A stretch of DNA of 25,953 nucleotides, from positions 1-25,953 of the forward strand of contig JAHEBW010000033.1 in assembly GCA_024642065.1 (NCBI GenBank), written 5' to 3'. The notes under the pieces are model-generated. The model did not search any database. It was not told the origin of the DNA and saw only the letters and a program-made list of their open reading frames with translations. Of the stretch, positions 6,851 through 15,234 are shown piece by piece; position 1 is the stretch's first letter; every line of letters starts with the position of its first letter. Origin of the DNA: Polynucleobacter sp. (lineage in GTDB: Bacteria; Pseudomonadota; Gammaproteobacteria; Burkholderiales; Burkholderiaceae). The position numbers and the translations under genes are program-made.

Positions 6851-9409
6851 ATGTCAGCAACTAAAGCCAAAAAAACGATAACTAAAGCAGTTATTAAAAA
6901 AGTAGCACCTAAGGCAGCTAAATCAGCAAAGCCAGCCCCAAAGAAAGCTCCAGCTAAGGTAGTTAAGAAAGCAGCCCCAGCTGCAAAAAAGCCAGTGGCT
7001 AAGAAGCCAGCTGCTAAAGCGCCAGCTAAGACCCCTGCAAAACCAGTTAAAAAAGCTGCGCCAGTTGCTAAAAAACCTGTGGCTAAAAAGCCAGCAGCTA
7101 AGCCAACAGCTAAAGCCGCAGCAAAACCAGTTAAAAAAGCCGCACCGGTTGCTAAAAAACCAGTAGCGAAGAAGCCCGTAGCTAAAGTTCCAGCAAAACC
7201 AGTTAAAAAAGCTGCTCCGGTTGCCAAAAAACCTGAAGCAAAACCAGCTAAGCCTGTTAAGCCAGCGAAGGCAGAAAAACCAGCGAAAGCAGAAAAGCCA
7301 GTTAAAGAAGTAAAGCTAACTGCTAAAGAAATTAAAGCAGCTAAAAAAGCAGAAGAACTTGCAGCGGCAGCAGCAACAACTGAAGAAGTTGTAGAGCAGC
7401 CAAAGAAAACTCGTGGCCGCAAACCAAAACCAGTTGAGCCAGTTGATCCTAACGTTGATAACCGTACTGATCGACAAAAAGCGCGTGATCGCAAGGCGAA
7501 AGAAAAGGCATTGTTACAAGAGTTCAATGCACAAAAATTAGGTAGCGAAGAACAACAAGAATTACGTCGTGCCCGCTTGAAGCATTTGATCAAGATGGGT
7601 AAGTCACGCGGCTATTTAACGCATGGCGAAATCAATGACGTGATGTCAGATGAAATCTCTGATTCTGATTCATTAGAAACATTGATCAGCTTGTTAAGCG
7701 ACATCAGCATTACTGTTTACGAACAAGCTCCAGATGCAGAAACATTACTACTAAACGAGAACGCACCTTCTGCTACAACAGAAGAAGAGGCTGAAGAAGA
7801 AGCTGAAGCAGCTTTATCAACAGTGGATTCAGAGTTTGGTCGTACAACTGATCCAGTTCGTATGTATATGCGCGAAATGGGTACGGTTGACCTTCTAACT
7901 CGTGAAGGCGAAATCGTTATTGCTAAAAAGATCGAAGCTGGTCTAAAAGAAATGGTGATGGCGCTGTCAGCATGCCCAGTAACTATTTCTGAGATTTTAG
8001 ATAACGTTACAAAAATTGAAGAAGGAACGATGGAGATCGACGAGTTTGTCGATGGTCTAGTAGATCCTAACGCTGAAGACATCCCAATGACTGCTGTTGA
8101 GGAAGAAGAAAACCTTGACGAAGAAGAGGGTGAAGAAGACGGCGAAGAAGGCGGTGGCGGCGGTGGTGGTAACACTGCTTCAGCTAAACAGTTAGAAGAA
8201 TTAAAGCAACTTTCATTAGTGAAGTTTGCTGTGATTCGTGCGCAATTCGACAAGATGCGTAAAGCCCACGAAAAAGAAGGCTATAACTCACCAGCATACA
8301 AAAAAGCACAGGAAGCGATTCGTAATGAATTAATGGGCTTCCGCTTAACAGCGAAATCAGTTGAAAAACTTTGTGACACGATGCGCAAGCAAGTCGATCA
8401 AGTTTGGGCACTAGAGCGTGGCTTAGTTCGTATCCTTGTGGACAAAGTAGGAGTTCCACGTGGTGAAGTACTAGCTGGCTTGCCTAAGAATGCATTGAAC
8501 TTGAAGTGGACTTTATTGTTATTGAAAGACGGTAAATCTTACGCAGCTATCCTAGAGCGTAACGTGCCAGCTGTTCAAGAAATGCAACAAAAGTTAATTG
8601 ATATTCAAGATAAAGTTGTTTTGCCACTTCCAGAATTAAAAGAAGTGAACAAAAAGATGAACGAGGGTGAAAAGCGCGCTCGTGCAGCTAAACGCGAAAT
8701 GACAGTAGCCAACTTACGTTTGGTTATTTCTATTGCTAAAAAGTACACCAACCGTGGCTTGCAGTTCTTGGATTTGATCCAAGAAGGCAATATCGGCTTG
8801 ATGAAAGCAGTAGATAAGTTTGAATACCGTCGTGGTTATAAGTTCTCAACTTATGCAACATGGTGGATCCGTCAGGCTATTACGCGTTCAATCGCCGACC
8901 AAGCTCGTACGATCCGTATCCCAGTTCATATGATTGAAACAATCAACAAGATGAACCGTATCAGCCGTCAAATTCTTCAAGAGACTGGTGTTGAGCCAGA
9001 TGCAGCTACTCTTGCAGCGAAGATGGAAATTCCAGAAGACAAGATTCGCAAGATCATGAAGATCGCTAAAGAGCCTATCTCTATGGAAACTCCAATTGGC
9101 GATGATGCAGACTCAAATCTTGGTGACTTCATTGAAGACACCAATACATTGGCGCCACAAGAAGCTGCATTGCATGACTCAATGCGTGATGTAGTCAAAG
9201 ACATTCTTGATTCATTAACGCCACGTGAAGCTAAAGTTCTCAGAATGCGTTTCGGTATCGAAATGAGTACTGACCATACTTTAGAAGAAGTAGGTAAACA
9301 GTTTGACGTTACGCGCGAGCGCATTCGTCAAATAGAAGCCAAAGCTTTGCGTAAAATGCGTCATCCAAGCAGAAGCGACAAACTTAAGAGCTTCTTAGAG
9401 GAAGATTAA
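6851..9409 (+). CDS. rpoD: RNA polymerase primary sigma factor RpoD with a long Lys/Ala/Pro-rich N-terminal extension
   Basis: 852 aa. Regions 2-4 are unmistakable ([59 protein letters not shown]; [30 protein letters not shown]). Region 1.1 ([20 protein letters not shown]) only begins near residue 240. Confidence 0.97.
6863..7322 (+). repeat. Low-complexity coding repeats ([18 protein letters not shown] units) inside rpoD
   Basis: The unit aaaccagttaaaaaagc(t/c)gc(g/a/t)cc(a/g)gttgc(t/c)aaaaaacc recurs at 7040, 7124 and 7196 (periods 84 and 72 nt). It is embedded in about 460 nt of Lys/Ala/Pro codons. Confidence 0.85.
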
Positions 9410-9455
9410 TCCATAAGGGCCCTTAGCTCAGTTGGTTAGAGCAGAGGACTCATAA
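9353..9455 (+). repeat. Left 103-bp direct repeat (attL): rpoD 3' end, 7-nt spacer and 5' half of the tRNA
   Basis: Aligns without gaps to 15132-15234. The only mismatches are at 9385, 9408 and 9412. Confidence 0.95.
9417..9455 (+). pseudogene. Truncated tRNA(CAU) remnant: 5' 39 nt, ending in the anticodon loop
   Basis: GGGCCCTTAGCTCAGTTGGTTAGAGCAGAGGACTCATAA is identical to the first 39 nt of the complete tRNA at 15196. The sequence diverges immediately after CATAA. Confidence 0.95.
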
Positions 9456-9467
9456 AATTGGAGTAGA

Positions 9468-9525
9468 GGACTAATACAGTTTTGCGACATTGGTTTAAGC
9501 ATAGCAAAATTTATTAGTCCTTTTT
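9468..9525 (+). terminator. Long hairpin plus T5; candidate island-supplied terminator for rpoD read-through
   Basis: GGACTAATA (9468-9476) pairs with TATTAGTCC (9512-9520). After a bulged C77, AGTTTTGC (9478-9485) pairs with GCAAAATT (9504-9511), including one G-T pair. The loop is 18 nt, followed by TTTTT (9521-9525). Confidence 0.45.
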
Positions 9526-9751
9526 ACATCTACTTTGTTTTTACTCTGTGGCTTTTTGACTACAGCAGTTGGCATCTACAGTCGCGTAAAAAATAAAATG
9601 ACAGCACACTAGCGTGTATGTTATTACTTAAAGAACTTTTCATACAACAGCACAACGCTGACAACAACGCAAATCAAAAAAAAAAGCAGTAGGCGGCAAA
9701 GCCACGCTGTACAAGCGTCCAGAGTCATCGTGTTGGCAAGTACGCTTTAAG

Positions 9752-10837
9752 ATGGGTGTTAATAAGTGGTACTCATTTTCAACAAATACAGATGACTTAG
9801 AGCAAGCACAAATTAATGCTGAGGAAATATACAACACAGCATCAATTAAAACAAACGCTGGACTAACTCCACTTACAAAGACATTCAAGCAAATAGCAAT
9901 AATTGAGTTGGCAAATATGGAACAAGCTATGTCTAATGGCATTGGCAAGAAAACATATAGAGATTACACATTTGCTATCAACAAATATCTCATCCCTTTC
10001 TTTGGCTCATACTCAATTGAAAAAATAACAACAGAGTTAATTAGAGACTTTGAAGGTTGGCGAATAGCAATAATGGGAAAAGTGCCAATGGCTAGTACTA
10101 AGCGGAATCATTCATCTGCTTATATTCGTGTAATCAACTTAGCAAAAGAAAAAGGGATTTGTCCAAGTATTACTGTTGTGCCTATGTTGGATAGCAAAGG
10201 AGAAAAGAGTAAGCCTCGTCCAGCCTTTAGCGATAGGGAGCTAGATGACTTACTTGCTTTTATACCTAATTGGATAGAGTTGTCATACACAAATAGAACG
10301 CGACAGATGAGAATGCTGTGCTACGCATACATAGAGTTTCTTGTTAATACTGGTATTAGACACGGAACAGAAGCATTGCCTTTGCGTTGGAAGCACTTAC
10401 AGTGGCATTGGGTTGGTGAGAAAAAGTTTTTGCGTATATGGGTAAGTGGAAAGACTGGTCCTCGTTATCTGATTGCTAAGAGTGAAGTGATAGCAGTATT
10501 AGAGAGATTGATGCGTTGGCAAGAATTACCTTACGCTACATTAGATAACTTAATAGATGATAGGTTGGATAAGCTAATTTTTAGGATTAGTACTGGTGAA
10601 AAAATTAGTAATATGGAAAATATATTTAGAGGTTTAATGAAGCACAGCAAGCTGATGTATGACAGTGGTGGGCAAAGAAGAACTCTATATAGTCTGCGTC
10701 ATACCTACGCTACAAGGGCATTGGCTAAAGGTGTTGATATACACACGCTAGCTAGACAAATGGGTACTAGCGTATTGATGATTGAGAAGCACTACAGCAA
10801 AATAACGCCAATGCTGAAGGCTGAGATGCTTGGTTGA
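9752..10837 (+). CDS. Tyrosine-type site-specific integrase (island integrase), possibly N-terminally truncated or frameshift-controlled
   Basis: 361 aa. Catalytic signature: TGIRHGTEALPLRW (Arg I), LYSLRHTYAT (box II H-x-x-R region) and MIEKHYSKI (Tyr). It sits 297 nt from attL. Confidence 0.9.
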   Translation: MGVNKWYSFSTNTDDLEQAQINAEEIYNTASIKTNAGLTPLTKTFKQIAIIELANMEQAMSNGIGKKTYRDYTFAINKYLIPFFGSYSIEKITTELIRDFEGWRIAIMGKVPMASTKRNHSSAYIRVINLAKEKGICPSITVVPMLDSKGEKSKPRPAFSDRELDDLLAFIPNWIELSYTNRTRQMRMLCYAYIEFLVNTGIRHGTEALPLRWKHLQWHWVGEKKFLRIWVSGKTGPRYLIAKSEVIAVLERLMRWQELPYATLDNLIDDRLDKLIFRISTGEKISNMENIFRGLMKHSKLMYDSGGQRRTLYSLRHTYATRALAKGVDIHTLARQMGTSVLMIEKHYSKITPMLKAEMLG

Positions 10838-11000
10838 GAAACTACAAAGCGGAAACAGAGACTGCCTCAATATCATCTTATGCTCTGTAGTGTCCACCGC
10901 AGTGGATACAAAGATTAGAAGGCTTAACCAACAGTCCCCCGCATTATGCTGTTAAGCTCCAATTTTGACTACATTCAAAGTTTGGAAGCGGTTTGCCTAA

Positions 11001-14855: not shown

Positions 14856-15027
14856 CTATACAGTTTTTCAAACACTAACTACTTTTTCCTAACCCCACTT
14901 GATTTTTAACCACTGTCTAAACTAAGAAAGCCGTCATTTGATTCAAATTCAATAGGTTTTTGGTGGTTTTCATAAAGTTTTTAGTTTTATTGCTGTGGGG
15001 ATGAGAGGCATAGCTGAGATGCCTTTT

Positions 15028-15061
15028 AGATAGTAGGTTTATGTAAAAGCAGGATTTTTTA
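15028..15061 (-). repeat. Island repeat copy f (reverse)
   Basis: The reverse complement TAAAAAATCCTGCTTTTACATAAACCTACTATCT shares 15 nt (TTTTACATAAACCTA) identically with copy c. Confidence 0.8.
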
Positions 15062-15073
15062 CAGTTAGAACAT

Positions 15074-15101
15074 TTGGACAGCATCCATAAACCATTACAA
15101 T
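15074..15101 (+). promoter_or_regulatory. Candidate island-borne sigma70-type promoter reading toward the tRNA
   Basis: TTGGAC (15074-15079), a 16-nt spacer, then TACAAT (15096-15101), about 95 nt upstream of the tRNA 5' end. Confidence 0.3.
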
Positions 15102-15131
15102 AGCGTTTATTAAATTTAAGCAAGCTAAGAC

Positions 15132-15234
15132 AAAATGCGTCATCCAAGCAGAAGCGACAAACTAAAGAGCTTCTTAGAGGAAGATTGATCAATAAGGGCC
15201 CTTAGCTCAGTTGGTTAGAGCAGAGGACTCATAA
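15132..15234 (+). repeat. Right 103-bp direct repeat (attR): island-borne copy of the rpoD 3' end, spacer and tRNA 5' half
   Basis: 100 of 103 positions are identical to 9353-9455. The sequence to its left is unrelated to rpoD. Confidence 0.95.

Follow-up and report, generated by a model that had tools for sequence, protein, structure and literature searches.

The 25,953-nt contig JAHEBW010000033.1 of Polynucleobacter sp. (GenBank assembly GCA_024642065.1), which we refer to as the window throughout, carries on its forward strand a complete rpoD open reading frame (ORF; 6851–9409), in which Pfam detects every sigma-70 region, and a single tRNA gene (15196–15272). The two are separated by a stretch of DNA bounded by direct repeats of 103 nt (9353–9455 and 15132–15234). 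Measured from repeat start to repeat start, this element is 5,779 nt long; it holds a tyrosine integrase gene beside the left repeat, a second, smaller recombinase gene, a gene for a DUF6641 protein and, between these last two, a conserved segment that appears to be non-coding and structured.

The repeat copies align without gaps and differ at three positions (9385/15164, 9408/15187 and 9412/15191), a length and identity that exclude a chance match. The left copy, attL, comprises the last 57 nt of rpoD with its stop codon (9407–9409), a 7-nt spacer and, left behind as a displaced 5′ fragment, the initial 39 nt of a tRNA gene (9417–9455). The right copy, attR, has a pseudo-rpoD tail and the tRNA 5′ half with no rpoD upstream; it runs into the only tRNA that ARAGORN finds in the window, an intact forward-strand gene with anticodon CAT that scores 72 bits against the Rfam tRNA model and is followed by the native tRNA terminator at 15287–15305. 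The top Escherichia coli matches of this gene are annotated tRNA-Ile, meaning that the window tRNA(CAU) is of the tRNA-Ile2 (lysidine) type. Identity between the two copies ends after CTCATAA (9449–9455 in attL, 15228–15234 in attR), at the 3′ edge of the anticodon loop.

The interior of the element also differs from its surroundings: its G+C content is 0.364 against 0.449 and 0.408 in the flanks, and its tetranucleotide distance from them is 0.35, compared with at most 0.16 among flank pieces of equal size. A sequence-only reading of the window had proposed an integrative island here on the strength of gapless 103-nt repeats with these three mismatches, a left copy joined to the real rpoD, a right copy joined to the 3′ half of a complete tRNA with its terminator, and homology that stops at CATAA in the anticodon loop. 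Our recount and annotation returned the same picture, and the compositional comparison that it had suggested sets the island apart from its flanks.

Empty sites and sister islands

Matching a 40-nt pattern across the anticodon loop against a genome collection gave at least 120 loci, because the tRNA is conserved in many Beta- and Gammaproteobacteria. To recover empty sites among them, we fused window positions 8001–9455 to 15235–16400 and compared this query with loci in which a full rpoD C-terminus precedes an intact tRNA. The fused query crossed the junction without gaps in Polynucleobacter sp. AM-26B4 (L030; 86% identity), and in a related metagenome-assembled genome (L104) it aligned along both flanks, including the downstream ChrR-like gene, at 77% identity; in Polynucleobacter sp. 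UB-Piko-W3 (L043) and in L051 the full rpoD stands directly before an intact tRNA with no interruption. The empty attB site predicted from joining the flanks was therefore recovered in all four. Among the matches listed (L005–L124), the 40-nt tRNA-Ile2 core is identical in Pseudomonas, Psychrobacter, Coxiella and many Burkholderiales and Nitrosomonadales. Adjacency of rpoD and this tRNA is common to many Betaproteobacteria (for example, L011, L023, L046, L065, L073 and L117).

Occupied sites were found as well. Exact-protein look-ups of integrase homologues led to three loci. In two of these, L002 and L003 (Polynucleobacter sp. 73C-SIWE), the rpoD–tRNA site is occupied as in the window, by islands of 6.6 and 5.3 kb whose flanking repeats measure 103 and 109 nt, respectively. 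In the third (L004, Polynucleobacter sp. TSB-Sco08W16), a 5.1-kb relative lies in the last codons of ttcA; its 33-nt repeat (9807–9839 and 14891–14923) ends in GGGGA-CTTATAA, which together with the subsequent TCCCC imitates an anticodon stem-loop. This insertion alters only the final four residues of the ttcA product, a tRNA 2-thiocytidine synthetase. A scan of metagenome contigs with a DUF6641 alignment gave 456 relatives, from which 80 loci were retained; islands with both ends present occupy the same tRNA(CAU) gene in L150, L138 and L164, a different tRNA(CAU) gene in L144 and a tRNA-Phe gene in L149 and L161. The same-site sister islands in L002, L003 and L150 share their gene order with the window island.

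A single attachment rule holds across the family. In every tRNA case with both ends, the 5′-half fragment adjoins the integrase gene and the intact tRNA stands at the far end, with no duplicate of the 3′ half; in all targets, the ttcA mimic included, homology breaks off at the 3′ edge of a 7-nt loop between 5-bp inverted arms. The crossover is therefore best placed in this loop between the symmetric stem arms, which in the window is the CTCATAA segment, and an exact 7-bp overlap would fit this arrangement. The sequence-only reading had put the crossover probably within 9413–9455, and the family comparison narrows it to the right edge of that range.

The combination of empty sites with sister islands, some at this site and some elsewhere, argues for a site-specific integrative element, as had been proposed, and the foreign composition supports this. 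We put at about 0.85 the probability that 9456–15131 together with the repeat copy 15132–15234 is an integrative element of a widespread Polynucleobacter family, inserted as follows. A lambda-type tyrosine integrase would have recombined attP with a target in the tRNA-Ile2(CAU) gene, namely its anticodon loop, the gene lying 7 nt past rpoD; attP itself would duplicate both the 5′ half of this tRNA and the 64 nt that precede it. Once the element was in place, the fragment left beside the integrase gene, in attL, would be the 5′ half of the host gene, and a working tRNA would have been rebuilt at attR from the 5′ half of the element and the 3′ half of the chromosome. The mere existence of a direct repeat would also fit a local segmental duplication or an assembly artefact, but that explanation is refuted by the empty sites, the same- and other-site sister islands, the precise end of homology at the loop edge and the foreign composition, and we give it practically no weight.

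The origin of the repeat copies bears on where the element came from. If strands are exchanged at the right-hand end of the repeat, then attL consists of host DNA, and it is the attR copy that the element brought with it. The attR block of L002 is identical to the rpoD-side block of the window (103/103) and less similar to L002’s own attL block (98/103); together with the adjacent tRNA 3′ half (144 nt), it is identical to the corresponding host sequence of the window. The working tRNA of L002 is visibly hybrid, its D-loop carrying the T of the element where the displaced host fragment has C. Similarly, the attR block of the window matches the L150 block at 102 of 103 positions, the two L150 copies being identical to each other, and differs at three positions from the window’s own rpoD end. 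These data point to transfer of the element between Polynucleobacter species.

Several observations weigh against the integrative-element reading. The attR block of L003 shares a 6-nt insertion and an acceptor-stem variant with L003’s own host rpoD region, which suggests that the block is sometimes homogenised with the host or that some element lineages keep to a single host lineage. Pfam, PHROG and NCBIfam searches recognise no family for excision, replication or transfer among the island proteins, in keeping with what the sequence-only reading had noted, and PADLOC finds no defence system in the island either. The integrase gene of the window copy is frameshifted, and this copy is hence possibly immobile. 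Finally, no good –35 element accompanies the TACAAT hexamer that we consider below as a candidate promoter of the rebuilt tRNA, and a generic promoter scan stayed at background level.

As an island, this is an ordinary, textbook tRNA-island case; its family is common in freshwater Polynucleobacter but undescribed. With the Islander tRNA islands it shares a tyrosine integrase gene at one end, a repeat that is part of a tRNA gene and a regenerated target gene, its length lies inside the Islander limit of 2–200 kb, and it has an intact tRNA at one end with a same-orientation 5′ fragment upstream at the other. The anticodon-loop subclass of Islander islands further shares the symmetric stem-loop crossover, probable tandem arrays (as in L164) and empty sites in relatives. 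Unlike most Islander islands, however, the window island displaces the 5′ half of the tRNA, and its repeat extends into the rpoD coding end. A 5′ tDNA fragment occurs in 159 of 3919 Islander tRNA islands (~4%; PMC4383910); this uncommon polarity, on which the sequence-only reading had not commented, is family-wide, judged by the junctions compared here. In Polynucleobacter, which is abundant in fresh water, the rpoD–tRNA-Ile2 junction appears to be an active hot spot for integration.

Two metagenome loci have a more complex arrangement. L164 carries three copies of the tRNA 5′ half (40–68, 255–283 and 5929–5957), either a tandem array or the remnant of another element at the site, and L154 has DUF6641 genes at 1045–1482 and 8001–8438 with a family integrase between them, either a tandem array or a concatemer. 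Such tandem-like arrangements are indistinguishable from an attP junction.

Integrase gene, candidate attachment arms and the rebuilt tRNA

The tyrosine integrase gene (9618–10837, forward strand) matches Pfam Phage_integrase and Phage_int_SAM_3 and the PHROG integrase family, and its homologues, of 404–406 aa, bear names from Polynucleobacter genomes; one of them (P0001, 406 aa) is 99% identical to the window integrase. Homologues begin MLLLKELF, and the equivalent ATG in the window is at 9618, 163 nt inside attL. The sequence-only reading had correctly recognised an integrase gene but placed its start 297 nt inside attL, which corresponds to an internal ATG at 9752; it had missed that the gene is frameshifted. 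In three-frame translation, the N-terminal frame closes at 9692 and the remainder is open from 9752 to 10837. DNA alignment locates the cause: L002, L150, L003 and L138 all keep a T within an A-rich stretch, and the window lacks it, leaving a run of ten A (A10) at 9676–9685. This one missing base accounts for both the run and the frameshift, and the window copy may hence be unable to move on its own. The frame change could reflect a mutation that truly inactivates the gene, a tract prone to slippage or a sequencing error; a protein started at the internal ATG would lack the N-terminal, presumably arm-binding, part. Over the catalytic domain, the Pfam match spans profile positions 19–166 of 172. 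Reading the homologue sequence by eye, we could see GIRHGTE, SLRHTYA and EKHY; the second active-site His/Trp position is apparently replaced, with MGTS in place of the usual GH.

The frameshift raises the possibility that the window copy is a dead, fixed remnant of a mobile family, its integrase inactivated and its 5.8 kb inherited only vertically. The one-base deletion relative to four relatives does truncate the N-terminal, presumably arm-binding, part of the protein, and the repeats already differ at 3 of 103 positions. However, all other ORFs of the island are intact and its core is 93–99% identical to those of L002 and L150, so any decay must be very recent; the repeat mismatches are better explained by a block acquired from another host lineage, given its near-identity to L150; a related integrase could act in trans; and a sequencing error in the A-rich stretch is possible. 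Moreover, A10 runs permit transcriptional or replicative slippage, which can restore the frame in a fraction of molecules. We therefore regard a dead remnant as a real but lesser possibility. If the window copy is instead an integrative element that can still leave its site, its excision would probably proceed only through slippage at the A10 run or through an integrase supplied in trans.

Both ends of the island carry candidate arm-type integrase sites. At the left end, ACAGT-N6-ACATTGG (9476–9493, forward strand), a candidate P′ arm, keeps its position whatever tRNA is targeted. At the right end (15061–15101, forward strand), ACAGT-N5-ACATTTGG (15061–15077) is followed by TACAAT (15096–15101), and this arrangement is conserved in the window, L002, L003, L150, L138 and L164. 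Indeed, ACAGT-N5-6-ACATT is present in direct orientation at both ends in all family members. The position and orientation of these motifs fit arm-type sites to which the integrase may bind, and an attP junction would be expected to read …TACAAT…CTCATAA joined to AATTGGAGTAGAGG…. The system resembles those of lambda-type heterobivalent integrases in having an integrase whose SAM-like and catalytic domains are preceded by an N-terminal extension, a direct-orientation motif on both sides of the crossover and a candidate IHF-like site between arm and core; it differs from them in that no excisionase is recognised in the window island and in the apparent replacement, seen by eye, of the second His/Trp position.

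Insertion at this site has consequences for the target gene. At empty sites, the tRNA begins 7–14 nt past the rpoD stop codon and is therefore probably co-transcribed with rpoD. Insertion puts 5.8 kb between the two, so the rebuilt tRNA would have to rely on signals borne by the island; because it is the 5′ half that is displaced, the element must carry the upstream region of the tRNA, and probably its expression signals with it. Every island at the rpoD site has ...ATTACAATAG... ahead of its attR block, a sequence that includes the TACAAT hexamer, and in L161 (tRNA-Phe) and L144 (the second tRNA(CAU)) the repeat itself holds TATAAT or TACAAT 11–12 nt before the tRNA. The element thus seems to carry the expression signals of the tRNA, and the TACAAT of the window may be a –10 promoter element for the rebuilt gene or an IHF-like site. 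A family of integrases that leaves 5′ fragments offers a clean natural system for studying how an element captures the expression of an important tRNA through imported upstream sequence, a possible promoter and a possible terminator.

A further candidate signal lies just inside attL, where a forward-strand inverted repeat (9466–9520) is followed by five T (9521–9525). The hairpin has about 20 bp and a predicted folding energy of –21.8 kcal/mol (z = –5.5), and L150 and L138 maintain its stem through compensatory changes. It is absent from L003, L164, L144, L149 and L161, and no consensus structure was found across eight family members, indicating a feature of a sub-clade. It looks like an intrinsic terminator that would block read-through from rpoD and the tRNA fragment, replacing the one left behind at 15287–15305. 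Two direct copies of AGAGGACT(C/A)ATA are found here at a distance of 24 nt, the first belonging to the tRNA anticodon arm (9441–9453) and the second to the 5′ arm of the hairpin (9465–9476); the second copy is diverged in L150, and the resemblance may be a relic or chance.

A structured element beside the DUF6641 gene

The feature of the island that we consider of main interest, together with the family-wide 5′-half strategy and the uncharacterised conserved core, lies between the genes for the small recombinase (11866–12435, reverse strand) and the DUF6641 protein (13536–13976, forward strand). This stretch is conserved at least as well as the coding genes, some of its blocks reaching ~95% identity in the comparison of the window with L004, against ~70% for the genes. 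A protein-coding reading of 12604–13443 was rejected: it offers only overlapping frames, with no conserved starts, indels that break the frames and no codon periodicity.

Within this stretch, 12893–13333 (forward strand) is a structured non-coding element, most likely an RNA of ~440 nt. It occupies the same place between the two genes in the window, in L002 (~14220–14660), L004, L150 and 24 metagenome loci. From an alignment of 22 sequences with 67–99% identity, RNAalifold predicted 18 helices with 83 pairs in total, the whole fold being closed by long-range helices; 17 of the pairs show compensatory changes. Paired cells of the alignment are complementary in 97.7% of cases, compared with 29–45% when the partners are slid by 1–3 columns; double-change cells number 78, compared with at most 13 in the controls; and none of 500 shuffles reached the observed values. 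G-U pairs make up 9.5% of the cells and several are invariant, and the opposite strand would pair only 89% of cells, which indicates that it is the forward strand that folds. We read 12893–13333 as most likely a gene for a ~440-nt structured RNA, a folded single-stranded DNA being less likely.

A covariance model built for 68 nt of the element found it in 28 loci, every time on the DUF6641 strand, with weak matches at the equivalent position in a divergent sub-clade of the family layout that we call type A (below) and none in type B or L003. Searches with Rfam 15 gave no family match for 12893–13333 at E ≤ 1; across 9300–15400 the tRNA alone matches, two other matches falling far under their gathering scores. 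Two more covarying hairpins lie upstream, at ~12790–12856, the second followed by a T run.

The small size of the island, the presence of an integrase and the lack of genes for autonomous transfer or replication would also suit a helper-dependent hitchhiker, that is, a phage satellite or mobilisable element in which the non-coding region and the motifs are cis-acting DNA signals such as a packaging site, a transfer origin or a single-strand origin. The DUF6641 protein matches a PHROG family of unknown function, and covariation alone does not separate folded RNA from folded single-stranded DNA. However, the non-coding region has no match in 50,697 phage records or 72,556 plasmid records, a 28-mer from it none in IMG/VR, and DUF6641 none in the same phage records. 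Pfam, PHROG and NCBIfam searches found no capsid, terminase, primase, relaxase or regulator family in the island, and Pfam and NCBIfam no relaxase, coupling protein or type IV secretion family, although a mimic of a transfer origin may be present; when we looked for phage satellites (PICI, P4-like) or a prophage, the PHROG matches were to integrase or function-unknown families only. In addition, a large multi-branched fold with long-range closing helices and many invariant G-U pairs is more typical of RNA. We consider a hitchhiker of this kind unlikely.

The non-coding region is also framed by copies of a palindromic motif, six of which are present in the island. The motif is 26–33 nt long, with a palindromic A/T-rich core around GCAGRN (for example, TTAAAAA-GTCTGC-TTTTTAA). 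A first pair (11748–11824; forward copy 11748–11776, reverse copy 11792–11824) separates the convergent ORF195 and small recombinase genes, a position also occupied in L002, L126, L135, L138, L144, L164 and L166; a single reverse copy (12577–12603) lies upstream of the small recombinase gene; a second pair (13444–13509; forward copy 13444–13476, reverse copy 13480–13509) separates the structured element from the DUF6641 gene; and a single forward copy lies near the right end (15034–15062), a position also occupied in L002, L126, L128, L130, L135, L138 and L150. Many type-A relatives have both pairs and the right-end copy at matching positions. The motif may serve as sites for the small recombinase, as operator sites or as terminators.

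This arrangement, a catalytic-only recombinase of ~190 aa beside a non-coding segment flanked by inverted repeats, recalls the Fim-type invertases (FimB/FimE) and their invertible promoter segments. One possibility is that the small recombinase and the inverted motifs (12577–12603 versus 13444–13476, and others) work as an inversion switch or a shufflon, turning round either the non-coding segment or the cargo genes. The recombinase is indeed reduced to its catalytic domain and weakly matches an NCBIfam invertase model (PRK09870, Fim-type), inverted motif copies surround both the 840-nt non-coding segment and 13510–15033, and the motif is island-specific, with no copies in 20 kb of the window flanks. 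That invertase match reaches only 47.4 bits against a cut-off of 221, however, and Xer matches are stronger. The structured element keeps a single orientation relative to DUF6641 at 28 independent loci, with no inverted form among them; L004 is without the left motif copy; spacing inside the motif pairs varies from 4 to 15 nt; the motif is missing from type-B members and from L003, although they do have the recombinase; and the segment holds a structured element, not just a promoter. An invertible switch is thus still less probable than a helper-dependent element. An integron is likewise not indicated: scores against the integron-integrase models, at 17.6 and 51.2 bits, stay below the cut-off of 265.

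Returning to a structured RNA as the preferred reading, several large non-coding RNAs are associated with mobile elements and tRNA loci, among them GOLLD, ROOL and HEARO. The candidate RNA of the window would resemble these in being several hundred nucleotides long, multi-branched, conserved and carried on a mobile element at a tRNA gene, and differs from them in having been found so far in only one subtype of a Polynucleobacter island family. With chances that we judge slightly short of even, 12893–13333 represents a new class of large structured RNA specific to very small tRNA-integrating islands, which would then essentially be vehicles for the RNA and its neighbours, namely the catalytic-only recombinase, DUF6641 and the palindromic sites peculiar to the island. 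In the boldest version, the RNA would act with the small recombinase or the DUF6641 protein in recombination, maintenance or host manipulation. Should the RNA prove real and functional, the large non-coding RNAs associated with mobile DNA would gain a new member.

Gene content and family layouts

ORF195 (11174–11761, forward strand) encodes a charged protein of 195 aa with no family match and follows the integrase gene in most type-A members. The small tyrosine recombinase measures ~189 aa from the ATG at 12435, although its ORF is open back to 12534; it consists of a catalytic domain only (Pfam Phage_integrase, 2.5e-31), its best sequence matches in the Protein Data Bank (PDB) are the catalytic domains of XerA, XerC and XerD, and it is found in all family members. 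The hallmark of the family, the 146-aa DUF6641 protein, matches Pfam PF20346 (1.8e-13) and PHROG 31551; its predicted structure has a mean pLDDT of 50, PDB sequence searches with it and with ORF195 returned nothing meaningful, and we found no mention of DUF6641 in the literature. Downstream, a variable cargo slot (13978–14468, reverse strand) contains genes for an 88-aa protein with a lipoprotein-like signal sequence (13978–14244) and a 74-aa DUF1413 protein (14244–14468); relatives hold other genes here. The last gene, ORF111 (14520–14855, forward strand), encodes a conserved protein of 111 aa with no family match in Pfam or PHROG searches and was recognised as conserved by comparing loci.

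The family core consists of the integrase, ORF195, the small recombinase, DUF6641 and ORF111. The sequence-only reading had called the element minimal and essentially uncharacterised; the latter stands, since the core is without known function, but ‘minimal’ does not do justice to a fixed family core with a second recombinase and, in one subtype, a probable structured RNA. At 5–13 kb, the family is very small yet abundant, with no core gene of known function.

Two layouts can be distinguished. Type A, to which the window, L002, L004 and many metagenome loci belong, has the integrase, ORF195, the small recombinase on the opposite strand, ~0.8 kb of non-coding DNA, DUF6641, the variable slot and ORF111. 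In type B (L148, L149, L159, L160, L174, L178, L180, L183, L185, L188–L192, L195–L198 and L202), the small recombinase is on the DUF6641 strand and is followed, ahead of the DUF6641 gene, by ~3.5 kb of genes without informative matches, which in L149 include a DUF2971 protein and an AAA-like ATPase; these loci have neither the structured element nor the palindromic motif. The window island resembles that of L002 in a mosaic fashion: identity is 87% in the integrase, 80% in ORF195, 93% across the segment that runs from the small recombinase to DUF6641, and 87% near the right-hand boundary.

An ORF-free spacer of 336 nt (10838–11173) separates ORF195 from the integrase gene in the window; in L002 and L004 the two genes are ~10 nt apart. 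L126 has an unrelated 83-aa ORF at this place, and the region looks like a second variable slot. A second frameshift, suspected from an 83-aa ORF beside the P0001 integrase, was rejected, that region not being homologous to the spacer of the window.

Outside the island, RpoD itself is long, at 852 aa, with ~237 residues ahead of region 1.1 (window 6851–7560). The DNA for this N-terminal stretch has a very strong A-over-T skew, reaching 0.50 at 7001–7500, and the RpoD proteins of relatives are similarly long, at 837–854 aa.

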